Shown here: in pieces, positions 7,943-30,410 of the stretch
Numbering within the stretch: position 1 is the stretch's first letter
Layout of the letters: the number at the start of each line of letters is the position of its first letter
Assembly: GCA_041738395.1 (NCBI GenBank)
Contig: JBGSPW010000064.1
Location: forward strand, 1-64,000
DNA: 64,000 nt
Origin: Thermoflexales bacterium
GTDB taxonomy: Bacteria; Chloroflexota; Anaerolineae; Fen-1058
Reading direction: 5' to 3'
Notes under the pieces: generated by a model
The model's database searches: none
What the model was told of the DNA's origin: nothing
Seen by the model: the letters and a program-made list of their open reading frames with translations, nothing else
Position numbers and translations under genes: made by a program

Positions 7943-8518
7943 ATGGCCGATCCATTCACCCACACCCGCCGCTCGATCCGGCGCTATCTCGATCGCCCTG
8001 TTCCCATGGAGTTGATCGATCAACTTCTGGAAGCGGCCACGCGTGCGCCCTCGGCTCATAATCTCCAACCGTGGCGCTTTGCGGTGATCTCCAGCCCGAT
8101 CGTTAAAGCGCAGCTCGCCGATCGAATGGGAGAACGGTTGAAAGCCGATCGGCAGCGCGAGGCCGATCGGGTAGCCGAGATCGATCGAGATGTGCAGCGC
8201 TCGCGGGAGCGCCTCAACGCCGCGCCGGTTGTGATCGTCGTGTGTCTGTCGTCGCTCGATCTGGATGAAGCGCGCGAACGAATCATGGCGATACAGAGTG
8301 TGGCCGCCTCGATCGAGAATCTGTTGTTGGCGGCGCACGAGGCAGGACTGGGCGCGTGCTGGATGGCTGCACCGCTGTACTGTCCCGACGTGGTGCGCGA
8401 CGTGTTGCAGTTGCCGGACGATTGGGAAGCACAGGCATTGATCACAGTTGGGTACCCAGCGGATAAGGTCAAGCCAAAAGCGCGCGTTGATTTTCGAGAG
8501 AAAACAATTTACCGGTAG
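7943..8518 (+). CDS. Nitroreductase-family protein. It resembles the FbiB C-terminal domain and is a possible dehydro-F420-0 reductase.
   Basis: N-terminal RRSIRRYLDRPVP...APSAHNLQPWRF matches the nitroreductase fold. The ATG at 7943 is chosen over the upstream GTG at 7838. The gene sits directly upstream of cofD and cofC. Confidence 0.6.
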   Translation: MADPFTHTRRSIRRYLDRPVPMELIDQLLEAATRAPSAHNLQPWRFAVISSPIVKAQLADRMGERLKADRQREADRVAEIDRDVQRSRERLNAAPVVIVVCLSSLDLDEARERIMAIQSVAASIENLLLAAHEAGLGACWMAAPLYCPDVVRDVLQLPDDWEAQALITVGYPADKVKPKARVDFREKTIYR

Positions 8519-8531
8519 GGGCGAGGACAAC

Positions 8532-9563
8532 ATGAACATTGTGGCCTTAGCAGGCGGCGTGGGTGGAGCAAAGTTGGCGCAGGGACTCACCCTCACCCCA
8601 GTCCTCTCCCTTGAAGGGAGAGGGAGTTTGACGATCATCGTCAACACGGGCGATGATTTTGAATGGCACGGGCTAACCATCTGCCCCGATCTCGATACAG
8701 TGACGTACACGCTGGGTGGATGGGCAAACACCGTTACTGGCTGGGGTGTGGCGGGCGATACGTTCGAGGCGATCGGTGCGCTGCAGCGGCTGGGCATCGA
8801 GCCGTGGTTCAAGATCGGCGATCGAGATTTGGCGACACATGTGTATCGCACTGAATTGCTGCGCCAGGGTCAGACCTTGACCGAAGTCACGCGCCGCATC
8901 ACCCGCGCCCTTGGCATCGAGGCAACGATCCTGCCGATGACGGATGATCGCTTGCGGACGATGATAGACACCGATCAAGGCGTGTTGGAATTTCAAGAAT
9001 ATTTCGTGCGGCGGCAGTGGCAGCCGATCATTCGCCGCATCTTCTTCGACGGTGCTGAGACGGCCCGCGCTACCCCGCAGGTCAGCAGCGCGTTGGCGCA
9101 AGCCGATGCCATCCTCATCGCTCCGTCGAATCCGTTTGTGAGCGTGGAACCGATCTTGAGCCTCACCCCCCTACCCCCTCTCCCGAAATCGTCCTTCGAC
9201 TCCGCTTCGCTCCGCTCACGCCGTACCCGCGAAGCGGCGGCGCGCTGGGCGGGAGGCGGAGTTCGGGCGAGGGGGCCGGGGGGGAGGCTTGCCGTGTCGC
9301 CCATCGTCGGCGGGCAGGCCCTCAAAGGCCCCGCGGCCAAGATGTTCCGCGAACTGGGTGTGGAACCATCGGCCTTTGCCGTGGCACAGCATTACCACGG
9401 TCTCGTCACCCACTTCGTGCTCGATCAACTCGACGCCGATCAAGAAAGTGCGATACAATCGCTGGGCATGAAAACGCTGGTGACGAATACGATCATGCCG
9501 TCGGTGGAAGATCGCGTGCGACTCGCTACAGAAGTGGTAGAATTCGTAAAACGTAATACGTAA
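8532..9563 (+). CDS. cofD: 2-phospho-L-lactate transferase (CofD/FbiA) for F420 biosynthesis. It carries an in-frame insertion of about 130 nt made of a palindromic repeat element.
   Basis: MNIVALAGGVGGAKLAQGL...IIVNTGDDFEWHGLTICPDLDTVTYTLGG is the canonical CofD N-terminus. An RBS precedes the ATG at 8532. The insert spans 9159-9289. Confidence 0.85.
   Translation: MNIVALAGGVGGAKLAQGLTLTPVLSLEGRGSLTIIVNTGDDFEWHGLTICPDLDTVTYTLGGWANTVTGWGVAGDTFEAIGALQRLGIEPWFKIGDRDLATHVYRTELLRQGQTLTEVTRRITRALGIEATILPMTDDRLRTMIDTDQGVLEFQEYFVRRQWQPIIRRIFFDGAETARATPQVSSALAQADAILIAPSNPFVSVEPILSLTPLPPLPKSSFDSASLRSRRTREAAARWAGGGVRARGPGGRLAVSPIVGGQALKGPAAKMFRELGVEPSAFAVAQHYHGLVTHFVLDQLDADQESAIQSLGMKTLVTNTIMPSVEDRVRLATEVVEFVKRNT
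9159..9289. repeat. GC-rich nested palindromic element (copy 1), inserted in-frame within cofD. Its core is shared with 40624-40766.
   Basis: Core cttcgactccgcttcgctccgctcacgccgtacccgcgaagcggcggcgcgctgggcgg is about 90% identical to 40689-40752. Flanking arms are inverted: agcctcaccccc versus gggggggaggct. Confidence 0.75.
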
Positions 9564-9598
9564 AACGTAACACCGCGCCTTACGTTTCACGTTTTATC
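9544..9598. repeat. GTAAAACGTAA/TTACGTTTCACG hairpin element (copy 1), overlapping the cofD stop. It is probably a terminator or REP-like element.
   Basis: cgtaaaacgtaatacgtaaaacgtaa...ttacgtttcacgtttt. A second copy lies at 62565-62633. Confidence 0.6.
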
Positions 9599-9607
9599 CT
9601 TCACACC

Positions 9608-10231
9608 ATGACCTTTGCCTCACCTATCTACGCCATCATCCCCGTCAAGCCGCTCCGTCGTGCTAAGAGCCGACTGGCCCGCGCTCTAAAAGCGCCGACA
9701 CGCGCCGCGCTGGTACGCTCAATTTTTTCGCGCACACTGGACATCATCGCGCAAGTGGAACGCATCGACGGCGTAATCGTCGTGAGCCGCGATCTCACCA
9801 TCCTGGAATTGGCCCGCCAGCGCCATGCGCTTGCTCTGGCCGAATCAGAGTCTGGCTTGAATTCGGCCATCACACAGGCCGCGCAGTGGGCGACCCGGCA
9901 CCACGCCCGAACGGCGATCGTCATCCCTGTGGATTTACCGCTGATCACTTCGGCCGATCTCGACGCGGTGATCGATCGGGCCGTAGAAGAGCGCTGCGTC
10001 GTTATCGCTCCCGATCGGCACGAGGATGGCACCAACGTCCTGCTCGTGCGCCCGCCCGACGCGATCCAGTTTGCCTACGGTACGTCATCGTTCAACGCGC
10101 ATCGCGCGCAGGCCATTGAACGCGGCCTGATCGTACATGAGTATCGATCACCTACGACCGCATTCGACATCGACGTGCCGGACGATTTGGAACTGTATCG
10201 TGCGCTTGACGCACAGCATATTTCGGAATAA
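9608..10231 (+). CDS. cofC: 2-phospho-L-lactate guanylyltransferase (CofC/FbiD).
   Basis: IPVKPLRRAKSRL is the hallmark CofC motif. Size is 207 aa. The gene is adjacent to cofD. Confidence 0.8.
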   Translation: MTFASPIYAIIPVKPLRRAKSRLARALKAPTRAALVRSIFSRTLDIIAQVERIDGVIVVSRDLTILELARQRHALALAESESGLNSAITQAAQWATRHHARTAIVIPVDLPLITSADLDAVIDRAVEERCVVIAPDRHEDGTNVLLVRPPDAIQFAYGTSSFNAHRAQAIERGLIVHEYRSPTTAFDIDVPDDLELYRALDAQHISE

Positions 10232-18388: not shown

Positions 18389-18880
18389 TCAACGATAGAA
18401 GTTAATCCACTCGATGGTAAACTTGCTCTCCTCGCTCTGCATGAAAGCTGCCGGGGCCTCGAGGTCAAAGTAGCCGGAGTTAGACGTCACATTCATCCAG
18501 TGAGCATCACCAGGGCTGAGCGCGCTGATCTGGCCCTCTTGTACCAACATTTCGCGCGTTTGAGTAGAAACCGACACCTCCACGGTTTGTGCGCCATGCT
18601 TGAATTTGAAACTCTCCAGGCCTTTGACATGCAGCCGCATCACAATCTTGGGCGGCCACTGACCAGAGGCTTTCGCAATCATTACACTGCCGATGCCGGT
18701 CGGGCTGGTGATATCGATCAGGACCATCTCATTCGAGGTCGTGAAGACAATCCTAGGATCGCCTTTCAGCGGCGTGTAACGAAACGTCGGTCGATCGATC
18801 GGGCGCGCGGGCGCGGCACAGGCCGCCAGGCTCAACAGCACAGCGCCGGACAGTAAAGCAAGCAGATAACGTCGGAACAT
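18389..18880 (-). CDS. Lipoprotein of unknown function.
   Basis: Signal peptide with a lipobox (LLSLAAC). Confidence 0.5.
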   Translation of the reverse strand: MFRRYLLALLSGAVLLSLAACAAPARPIDRPTFRYTPLKGDPRIVFTTSNEMVLIDITSPTGIGSVMIAKASGQWPPKIVMRLHVKGLESFKFKHGAQTVEVSVSTQTREMLVQEGQISALSPGDAHWMNVTSNSGYFDLEAPAAFMQSEESKFTIEWINFYR

Positions 18881-18961
18881 TTATACTGTGCTCCTAACAG
18901 GATGTGTGGTCGATTATACCCAGACAGCCAAACACCGCAATGGGTCCTTGTTCAGGCTGCG

Positions 18962-19175
18962 GACTAGTCTGAAAATGCTCACAGCCCTCGTTCCCGAGGG
19001 CGTTCCCCGCAGGCGGGGCGCGAGCGCGGAGCGTTTTCAGGCTTTGTGCTGAATGCCGTTCATGGGGTCTGATCTGAAAATGCTCACAGCCCTCGTCCCC
19101 GAGGGCGTTTCCCGCAGACGGGGCGCGAGCGCGGAGTGTTGTTAGGGGCGGGGATGAACGCCGTTCAGGCTAACT
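18962..19175. repeat. Two tandem copies of a roughly 106-nt structured, hairpin-rich element.
   Basis: ctgaaaatgctcacagccctcgttcccgagggcgttccccgcaggcggggcgcgagcgcggagcgttttcag repeats at about 92% identity. Each copy is closed by ctgaaaa/ttttcag and contains gccctcg...cgagggc and ccccgc..gcgggg stems. Confidence 0.85.
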
Positions 19176-19235
19176 ACTAAGGCTTTTCAGTCTGTCTGCA
19201 ATCGGGTAAACTACATACCTCATCAGGAGGGCGGT

Positions 19236-30258: not shown

Positions 30259-30331
30259 AGCGGGAGACGAGACTCGAACTCGCGACAGCTTGCTTGGAAG
30301 GCAAGAGCTCTACCAACTGAGCTACTCCCGC
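30259..30331 (-). tRNA. tRNA-Gly (anticodon UCC).
   Basis: Reverse complement is GCGGGAGTAGCTCAGTTGGTAGAGCTCTTGCCTTCCAAGCAAG...GTTCGAGTCTCGTCTCCCGCT. The cloverleaf folds with anticodon loop cuUCCaa. Confidence 0.85.
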
Positions 30332-30336
30332 ATCAG

Positions 30337-30410
30337 TCGGGGCGGAGGGACTTGAACCCACGACCCCACGGTCCCAAACCGTGTGCGCTACCGGACTGCG
30401 CTACGCCCCG
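30337..30410 (-). tRNA. tRNA-Pro (anticodon UGG).
   Basis: Reverse complement is CGGGGCGTAGCGCAGTCCGGTAGCGCACACGGTTTGGGACCGTGG...GGTTCAAGTCCCTCCGCCCCGA with anticodon loop uuUGGga. There is one U-U mismatch in the T-stem. Confidence 0.75.

Follow-up and report, generated by a model that had tools for sequence, protein, structure and literature searches.

The window, by which we mean the whole 64,000-nt stretch of DNA analysed here, contains in the spacer between two divergent genes a direct head-to-tail repeat with a period of 105 nt, the two parts of which (18958-19062 and 19063-19167 in the register of the repeat search) are 84% identical without gaps. To the right of the repeat and on the same strand lies a gene of 446 aa (19236-20576), which has hundreds of homologues among Anaerolineae/Chloroflexota, and to the left, on the opposite strand, lies a gene of 163 aa. 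An earlier reading made from the sequence alone (hereafter the sequence-only reading) had described two tandem elements of roughly 100 nt upstream of a zinc-ribbon protein gene. Both parts of this description hold: the 446-aa protein has CxxC zinc-ribbon motifs, though its Pfam matches are all below the gathering score, and, in addition to the direct repeat itself, there are exactly two occurrences of the 22-mer CTGAAAATGCTCACAGCCCTCG in the 64-kb window, one at 18969 and one at 19074, while 0 are expected from shuffles.

We set the boundaries of the two units by phasing them on a dispersed family of related copies, described below, and not by the raw register of the repeat search. With these boundaries, the features of the spacer are as follows.

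18881-18946, minus strand: native left spacer block, conserved by alignment in relatives without the element; TATAAT at 18918-18913, TTGCGG at 18940-18935
18950-18967, plus strand: left flank GTTCAGGCTGCGGACTAG, which, as read from the sequence, resembles the end of unit 2 (GTTCAGGCTAACTACTAAG, 19160-19178)
18968-19072, plus strand: unit 1, 105 nt, the better preserved (TCTGAAAATGCTC ... GTTCATGGGGTCTGA); covariance model R1 scores 100 bits over 18964-19073
19073-19177, plus strand: unit 2, 105 nt, core intact, 3' arm and tail decayed; R1 scores 90.7 bits over 19069-19178
18969-18980 (unit 1) and 19074-19085 (unit 2), plus strand: 5' arm of the closing helix, CTGAAAATGCTC (repeat search and folding)
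18984-19028 (unit 1) and 19089-19133 (unit 2), plus strand: variable interior with hairpins GCCCTCG/CGAGGGC, CCCCG/CGGGG and CGC/GCG (folding)
19029-19040 (unit 1) and, degenerate, 19134-19145 (unit 2), plus strand: 3' arm GAGCGTTTTCAG, then a T-rich stretch
19049-19063, plus strand: tail palindrome of unit 1, CTGAATGCCGTTCAT, 9 nt before the CTGA end of the unit; family consensus GTGAACGCAGTTCAT
19154-19168, plus strand: tail palindrome of unit 2, ATGAACGCCGTTCAG (repeat search and palindrome scan)
Outer ends of the element: 5' TCTGAAAATGCTC..., 3' ...GTTCATGNNGTCTGA
19181-19235, plus strand: native right spacer block; TTTTCA at 19184-19189, 17 nt, TAAACT at 19207-19212, AGGAGG at 19225-19230; start codon ATG at 19236

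Units 1 and 2 are 94% identical over their first 68 nt and 80% identical over the whole unit, the tails having diverged, and searches of the 64-kb window with the units (BLAST and nhmmer) found no further copies inside it. The two units share a 6-nt insertion, CGCGAG, and a variant of the second hairpin, CCCGCAGRCGGGG, both of which are absent from all other copies of the family. Because these derived characters are exclusive to units 1 and 2, the pair are sister copies that result from a local duplication, or from insertion of a dimer, and not from two independent insertions. The array is either about 2.2 units long or is bordered by GTTCAGGCTGCGGACTAG as a flank repeat, with a register of exactly 2 x 105 nt. 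The likeness of the left flank to the end of unit 2 fits no simple model; for a flank repeat (GTTCAGGCT...) we considered simple tandem duplication and one-step recombination, and neither fits the observed order of the tails. A native TTTTCAGTCTG block also resembles the 3' arm of the element (repeat families D2, D3 and I7).

Unit 1 has a predicted fold of -48.8 kcal/mol (z = -2.7), and 6 of 200 shuffles fold equally well. In this fold, a closing helix of 12-15 bp, in which CUGAAAAUGCUC (18969-18980) pairs with GAGCGUUUUCAG (19029-19040), encloses the GC-rich hairpins GCCCUCG-uucc-CGAGGGC (18984-19001) and CCCCG-cagg-CGGGG (19005-19018) and a small hairpin, CGC-gagc-GCG (19019-19028). The sequence-only reading had given each copy a long-range closing helix, two internal GC-rich hairpins and a palindrome at its end. 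The palindrome is found in both copies, and unit 1 folds as described, with the small CGC/GCG hairpin as a third. The closing helix is confirmed for unit 1 but not for unit 2, in which the 3' arm is degenerate (GAGUGUUGUUAG; 11 of 12 pairs by inspection, three of them G-U) and the minimum-energy fold is different and unexceptional (z = -1.65); both this arm (GAGTGTTGTTAG) and the tail of unit 2 have drifted relative to unit 1.

If the repeat were a conserved part of its locus, we would expect to find it in the spacers of relatives. We examined 20 orthologous loci, 17 from GTDB species representatives (the best of the 17 is 90% identical, from the Anaerolineae MAG fen_1063) and 3 from ENA contigs, and found no match to the element in any of them with nhmmer, BLAST or the covariance model. 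Three relatives (L018, L019 and L020; 84-81% protein identity) have the gene order of the window, with the 163-aa gene upstream on the opposite strand, and can be aligned with it both at the spacer's left end (...GATTATACCCAGAC...) and across the block that immediately precedes the start codon (ATCGGGTAAACTAC...AGGAGG...ATG). Two further stretches, CAAACGCCGCAA to the left and GCTTTTCAGTCTGTC.GCA to the right, are common to the window, L018 and L020 but missing from L019, and about 210 nt in the middle of the spacer is missing from all three alike. Since these clean empty-site relatives are only 81-84% identical in protein, the exact boundaries of the insertion are fuzzy. Gene maps of the two closest JGI relatives, used in place of DNA, give spacer lengths of 150 and 134 nt, compared to 355 nt in the window, a difference of about two units. 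At the equivalent position in its spacer, L020, which is without the element, has GTGAATG...GGTTCATG.

The alignment thus places the element upstream of the conserved blocks that adjoin each divergent gene. The TATAAT of the left block, on the minus strand, sits 35 nt from the 163-aa gene, and TATAAT/TTGCGG may be the promoter of that gene, a pair that the promoter scan did not flag. On the right, TTTTCA-17-TAAACT, which precedes the ribosome-binding site, is a putative promoter of the 446-aa gene, with 8 of 12 matches, below the threshold of the scan. If the blocks are read as two divergent promoters, the units occupy the gap between them and belong to neither transcription unit.

Related copies were found elsewhere by three routes. 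A metagenome scan with a single 20-mer, GAAAATGCTCACAGCCCTCG, yielded nine contigs, three of which were coincidences in coding sequence, while six (L022, L023, L024, L026, L027 and L028) hold the whole unit, including the tail, between unrelated flanks, the L023 copy being cut by the end of its contig. The covariance model R1, which was built from seven copies and scores family copies at 62-120 bits, revealed a second copy in L026. Finally, the antisense translation of the element is open, and a search of a protein collection with this pseudo-peptide returned a spurious 63-aa 'protein' that led to a copy in L043; the 20-mer had missed L043 because of one substitution, so the sample of copies is incomplete. 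The search for further copies that the sequence-only reading had proposed thus gave eight more at seven other loci, for a total, with the two in the window, of at least 10 copies at 8 loci, all of them intergenic. Pairwise identity among copies with the standard interior is 70-95%, unit 1 of the window is 78-85% identical to the complete ones among these, and the length of the unit ranges from 84 to 151 nt. The sole internal reading frame of the element is broken by loop indels among the copies; a small peptide (MLTALV...) was rejected on these frame shifts and on its lack of a ribosome-binding site.

Three of the copies are in one MAG, GCA_003154575.1 (contigs PMDR01000163 and PMDR01000290). 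The nearest named relatives of its CheR are in Thermoflexales, Anaerolineae and Chloroflexota, and the search with CheR places the host of this Anaerolineae-type MAG in the Anaerolineae/Thermoflexales. Several of the copy-bearing contigs come from Stordalen-Mire-type samples, as does the nearest relative of the window. The density of copies is low, with 2 in the 64-kb window and 2 in 22 kb of L037. A 36-nt pattern had 0 matches in a genome-contig collection that excludes the genome of the window, and the viral contigs scanned gave zero or chance matches only. Two candidate empty sites were set aside: for L026 copy A, L041 is not a clean one, since the difference there amounts to about 300 nt, more than the element, and for copy B the nearest relative found through CheR homologues is only 68% identical.

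The copies share conserved arms and a conserved tail around an interior that varies. Across the family, the 5' arm is (CTGA)TCTGAAAATGCTC, the 3' arm is GAGCGTTTTCAKG followed by a T-rich stretch, and the tail, GTGGTGAACGCAGTTCATGrnGTCTGA, is part of a conserved 37 nt with the small palindrome and the CTGA end. The GAAAATGCTC bases are identical in 10 of 10 copies, an invariance that is partly forced because they belong to the search pattern that found six of the copies; this pattern imposed identity of the 5' arm and first hairpin on those six, so that conservation is overstated there and the power to detect covariation is low. Seven of the 9 complete copies have an unchanged GAGCGTTTTCA. The interior is modular and consists of one to three GC-rich hairpins, two in most copies. 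The third hairpin of the window copies derives from the 6-nt insertion common to both units, L023 and L024 have an additional hairpin inserted in the first loop, the extra hairpins of L023 and L027 show a compensatory difference (CCCTC/GAGGG versus CCTTC/GAAGG), and in L026 copy B the whole interior is replaced by a single perfect hairpin. A tRNA-like cloverleaf was rejected, since the three-hairpin junction is peculiar to the window copies and the others have one to three interior hairpins.

The ends of the element are marked by a constant tetranucleotide. CTGA lies directly 5' of the unit in 6 of 10 copies (the exceptions include unit 1, with CTAG, L022, with CCGC, and the truncated L027), and, of the 9 complete copies, 5 have CTGA as the end of the unit itself. 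None of the copies is flanked by a variable target-site duplication; the flanks share only the constant CTGA. The inverted arms are 12-13 nt long, and the 3' arm is not at the extreme end, being followed by the 37-nt tail, while the extreme ends themselves show only weak GATCT/AGGTC pairing.

Standard pairs fill 95.7% of the pair cells in the model alignment, but double changes occur at five pairs only: three trace to the hairpin that replaces the interior of copy B, and the other two lie in the tail hairpin; in L028, the tail palindrome has one compensatory change from G-C to A-U. Compensatory substitutions, which had been suggested as a check, are therefore present but too sparse to tell an RNA constraint from a DNA-hairpin constraint. 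The hairpins are clearly maintained, as judged from the aligned copies, and this is consistent equally with constraint on RNA, on a DNA hairpin or on a dyad site. In 9 of 9 complete copies, the strand that begins TCTGAAAATG has a fold 4-11 kcal/mol more stable than that of its complement, largely because of an invariant U-G pair (A-C on the other strand); as the copies share ancestry, this asymmetry should be weighed as one or two characters rather than nine tests.

The orientation of the element with respect to genes is also suggestive. It is co-oriented with both neighbours in all four same-direction contexts (L024, L026 copies A and B, and L043; p ~0.06), and it ends 28-60 nt before a same-strand start codon in the window, L024, L028 and L043, while in L026/L037 it lies 160-186 nt upstream of the start codon. 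The neighbours of the other copies are unrelated (NACHT-FGE, EcsC-like, collagen-like and kinase genes), and three of the eight loci adjoin DGR-target-type genes (NACHT-FGE and kinase-FGE). Copy B in L037 starts 23 nt past the stop codon of cheR and is flagged as a terminator-like structure in which a 20-bp stem precedes TGTTGTGTGG, and a 10/12 promoter match (TTGACC-18-TACAAT) lies between this copy and the next gene. From the terminator flag and the promoter downstream of it, copy B looks like the end of a transcription unit and not like the leader of the next gene. The same scan did not flag the window units as terminators, since their branched interior falls outside its definition of a terminator. 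When transcribed, the core of the element, an A-tract, GC-rich hairpins and a U-tract, could plausibly act as an intrinsic terminator or as an RNA-stabilising stem, and such a role would account for the orientation bias.

The sequence-only reading had offered a duplicated small RNA, a riboswitch or leader, and a REP-type element as possible identities. Of these, a dedicated cis-regulatory leader or riboswitch of the 446-aa zinc-ribbon gene, tandemly duplicated, would fit the position of the units upstream of that gene on the same strand and the good fold of unit 1, yet it is very improbable: the element is absent from the 20 orthologous loci, including the three with the same gene order and spacer ends, homologous copies lie beside unrelated genes, and the conserved TTTTCA-17-TAAACT block is downstream of the element. 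Nor does Rfam lend it a family. At the gathering threshold the whole window yields two tRNAs only, and at E values up to 10 the region 18800-19300 yields only a chance match of 13 bits to a snoRNA, so that the proposed scan of covariance models returned no relevant family at either threshold. With no Rfam match, absence from orthologues and a position upstream of the conserved blocks, the leader reading is rejected. A duplicated small RNA is conceivable, though nothing requires the units to be one. Still less can be said for a purely local tandem duplication of native spacer without relatives elsewhere, a reading that suits two adjacent sister copies and has next to no chance of being correct, as it is refuted by the eight further copies at seven loci and by relatives whose native spacer is without the sequence. 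It is also improbable that the units form an operator array, in which a dimeric regulator of the divergent genes would occupy TGAAC-N3-GTTCA sites spaced 105 bp, or ten helical turns, apart, and the element would carry this operator to new genes. Within the tail, the palindrome has been preserved best and shows one symmetric (compensatory) change, and the GTGAATG...GGTTCATG of L020 lies at the equivalent spot without the element; against this, the window shows no enrichment of the palindrome (6 matches versus 4.6 expected, with only poor ones outside the units), the conserved 70-nt hairpin core is left unexplained, no regulator was identified and the spacing is unlike that of LexA-type boxes. 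Such boxes have the form GAAC-N4-GTTC, and a LexA/Cheo box was rejected on its N4 spacing compared to N3 here. Similarly, attC sites of integrons carry an R'' box (RYYYAAC) and an R' box (GTTRRRY) at the base of a hairpin, downstream of cassettes near intI; the arms of the element read GAAAATG and CGTTTTC, GTTTTCA does not fit GTTRRRY and there is no integrase in the scanned ORFs, and we rejected an attC site as well.

The main alternative, or a possible co-existing function, is that the copies are a family of functional RNA modules (portable terminators, 5' stabilising or gating stems, or a multicopy small RNA) whose spread is secondary. Here the sense strand is always the better folder and has the invariant U-G pair, the arms are conserved around variable interior hairpins as they are in terminators, the element is co-oriented with its neighbours in 4/4 same-direction contexts and stands 28-60 nt upstream of the start codon at four loci (the window, L024, L028 and L043), and L037 copy B is terminator-like directly 3' of cheR. 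In the window, by comparison, the genes on either side of the element are divergent and need no terminator between them, the element is outside the conserved promoter-proximal blocks, its copies are not flagged as terminators, and unit 2 is decaying. The family has no counterpart in Rfam, the orientation bias has a p of ~0.06, and the 70-95% identity of copies at unrelated loci points to recent spread and not to an old conserved RNA. On balance, we regard functional RNA modules as unlikely to be the primary explanation. The orientation bias and the closeness to start codons (28-60 nt at four loci) could nevertheless indicate a selected RNA function.

We consider it probable that the two units are copies of a non-autonomous interspersed repeat of about 105 nt, which belongs to Anaerolineae-class Chloroflexota and is tandemly duplicated here. 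The copies are dispersed, are absent from orthologous sites, and have conserved ends, a modular interior and a retained potential to form hairpins. We envisage that one copy entered the spacer between the divergent genes, upstream of both conserved promoter-proximal blocks, and was then duplicated in tandem, and that unit 2 is now decaying, as expected of DNA under little selection. We infer that the element moves or moved, using an enzyme encoded elsewhere. Transposases among the 29 window ORFs scanned with Pfam are limited to an IS1595 fragment (29171-29860) 10 kb away, none of these ORFs matches Y1_Tnp, TnpA, TnpB, RAYT or integrase, and no separated arms of a full-length parent element occur in the DNA examined (the window and the collected loci).

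A constant, non-palindromic CTGA, hairpins that are sub-terminal, an asymmetry between the strands and no variable target duplication together suggest single-strand (HUH-type) or site-specific insertion next to CTGA, a route that would differ from that of a classical cut-and-paste MITE. By such a route, head-to-tail insertion would also be possible for an element that restores its target at its own end. A bolder version of this reading, to which we give only a slender chance, is that the element is a strand-specific, CTGA-adjacent HUH or recombinase element with a route undescribed in Chloroflexota, and that it serves as a portable terminator or stabilising stem and rewires transcription, including that of DGR-target-type genes.

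The family can be compared to several known types of small repeat. By the usual traits of a MITE, it is short, non-coding and dispersed (84-151 nt, 10 copies, 8 loci) and differs in presence or absence at orthologous sites (absent from L018-L020 and 17 further loci), but copy-specific target-site duplications were not found. In being short, non-coding, dispersed and intergenic, with hairpin-forming arms and differences in presence or absence, it resembles Correia/NEMIS elements of Neisseria, ERIC and RUP. When transcribed, Correia/NEMIS-, ERIC- and RUP-type MITEs can act as terminators or RNase targets. Unlike classical MITEs, the family has arms that are not terminal on the 3' side (the 37-nt tail), has no variable target duplication and has no known matching IS. 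The same genomes also hold MITEs, about 100 nt long, in which terminal inverted repeats and target duplications are clear (28943-29057 in the window and 13300-13425 in L037), and these look different. MITE-like stem-loop arrays have been reported near DGR loci (10.1101/2023.09.22.558884).

Both the bcr repeats and Correia-/ERIC-type MITEs are close to the family in behaviour, the bcr repeats being the closest. These are intergenic and are predicted to fold into stable RNA structures. We know of no description of modular swapping of interior hairpins as a bcr feature. In the Bacillus cereus group, bcr1-bcr18 are lineage-restricted repeats of 100-400 bp with a few to more than 100 copies per genome, and their mobility has been linked to a constant end motif, TTTAT, and not to a variable target duplication (PMC6542083). 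The family described here differs from them in sequence, in phylum and in end motif, which is CTGA.

With IS200/IS605-derived (PATE-like) and other HUH elements, the family may share a lack of terminal inverted repeats and target duplications and a fixed non-palindromic tetranucleotide on the left, and it resembles them in its strand asymmetry and in sub-terminal hairpins, which in the geometry of IS608 are set back by about 17 nt on the left and about 10 nt on the right. The ends of IS608-type elements carry hairpins that are similar to each other; unlike these, the left (GCCCTCG stem) and right (TGAAC stem) hairpins here are unrelated, and no TnpA, TnpB or RAYT was found in the scanned ORFs. 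Moreover, compared to the fixed flank of IS200/IS605 elements, the CTGA rule holds in just 6/10 copies on the left and 5/9 on the right. The REP-type identity stands in the broad sense, as the copies are dispersed in unrelated intergenic contexts and, like REPs and REPINs, are extragenic palindromic repeats able to form larger hairpins, but not in the strict sense: REPs are 20-40 nt long, have a GTAG or CGTC head and usually number hundreds of copies (PMC3733652), while the unit here is 105 nt, begins TCTGAAAATG, has a low copy count and lacks a GTAG or CGTC head. On the best reading, the family is therefore a new one within the small structured interspersed repeats (MITE-, bcr- and Correia-like) and belongs to no named family.

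The analysis removes a false lead, in that the element in the window is not a new riboswitch or leader, and it adds a defined family of small repeats, with a covariance model and a consensus, for the poorly studied and mostly uncultured Anaerolineae of wetlands. Such repeats break assemblies, yield spurious ORFs (a 63-aa protein has been recorded from this one) and can mislead searches for non-coding RNA. Should the CTGA rule and the orientation bias prove to be genome-wide, the family would provide a handle on an unidentified transposition system of Chloroflexota and would bear on how mobile hairpins supply terminators.

The order of genes around the gene for the 446-aa zinc-ribbon protein, which lies downstream of the two tandem units of the element, is not fixed. 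In fen_1063, the closest genome representative (90% identity; L001, 1547-4341), a paralogous zinc-ribbon gene lies 20 nt upstream of the 446-aa gene, and the divergent 163-aa gene that bounds the spacer on its other side in the window is absent beside it; gene order is therefore variable among close relatives. The preceding paralogue encodes 424-477 aa (L001, 1547-4341, and the locus of P0003). The spacer itself also differs in L020 (610-770), an orthologous locus without the element, where an unrelated insertion of its own, ~85 nt long, separates the conserved GGGTAAACTAG block from the start codon. Thus, the spacer upstream of the 446-aa gene is a recurrent insertion site in the lineage.

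Native sequences at this site resemble the arms of the element. Ahead of the 446-aa gene, the conserved block TTTTCAGTCTGTCTGC (window 19184-19199) matches the 3' arm and the bases that follow it, TTTTCAGGCTTTGTGC, at 13 of 16 positions, and codons 1-4 of the gene, GTCTGAAAGTG (19238-19248), match the 5' arm at 10 of 11. Pairing between the two motifs, UUUUCAG with CUGAAAG, would be possible across the ribosome-binding site. By a rough estimate, the significance of this whole pattern is marginal after multiple testing.

Several loci of the element adjoin genes of the type targeted by diversity-generating retroelements (three of eight; two NACHT-FGE and one Ser/Thr kinase-FGE, at L026/L037/L042 and L027). 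L041, a 653-kb contig compared with one copy of the element as a possible empty site, has at 8120-10000 what looks like such a retroelement. There, a reverse transcriptase gene is succeeded by a stretch (GGCTCCTGGAACAACAAT...GGGTTTCGG) that is rich in adenine and resembles a template; in the adjoining NACHT proteins, the C-terminal FGE-sulfatase/C-type-lectin region corresponds to this stretch. The association of element loci with genes of this type may be a coincidence, since the genomes are rich in them.

Other palindromic or candidate mobile sequences were found in the window and on contigs that carry copies of the element:

Window 28943-29057: palindromic element, ~101 nt, arms 28950-28997 and 29007-29054, 77% complementary
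Window 29171-29860, minus strand: ORF with transposase domain DDE_Tnp_IS1595 (E = 2e-27)
L037, 13300-13425: MITE, ~105 nt, with a 16-bp perfect terminal inverted repeat, TTACTACTCAGCCGTC / GACGGCTGAGTAGTAA
L043, 2380-2500, minus strand: palindromic repeat distinct from the element, ACGTCATTGCGAGCG ... AGATTGCTTCGTCGCTGGGAAGCGCTCCTCGCCATGACGG

The palindromic element in the window lies immediately upstream of the start of mutS (26316-28937, minus strand). The direct repeat ATTSGATCTAGGCC (14 nt) flanks it, which gives it the look of a classical MITE within its target-site duplication. It matches the covariance model of our family weakly (24.9 bits) because both share an architecture of AT-rich arms, GCTC/GAGC and a GC hairpin; its sequence differs from the family. 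The IS1595-family ORF (230 aa, probably truncated) lies between this element and two tRNA genes (30259-30410); a search around the ORF for terminal inverted repeats found none.

The L043 repeat, directly upstream of the copy of the element at that locus, seems to resemble a widespread repeat that yields spurious 'LLRFARNDG'-type ORFs in many bacteria. The L037 MITE separates an ORF of 139 aa from a CopC/CopD gene and is bounded on either side by a 9-bp direct repeat, CGTTCACTG; there are therefore several families of 100-nt mobile hairpins in these Anaerolineae genomes.
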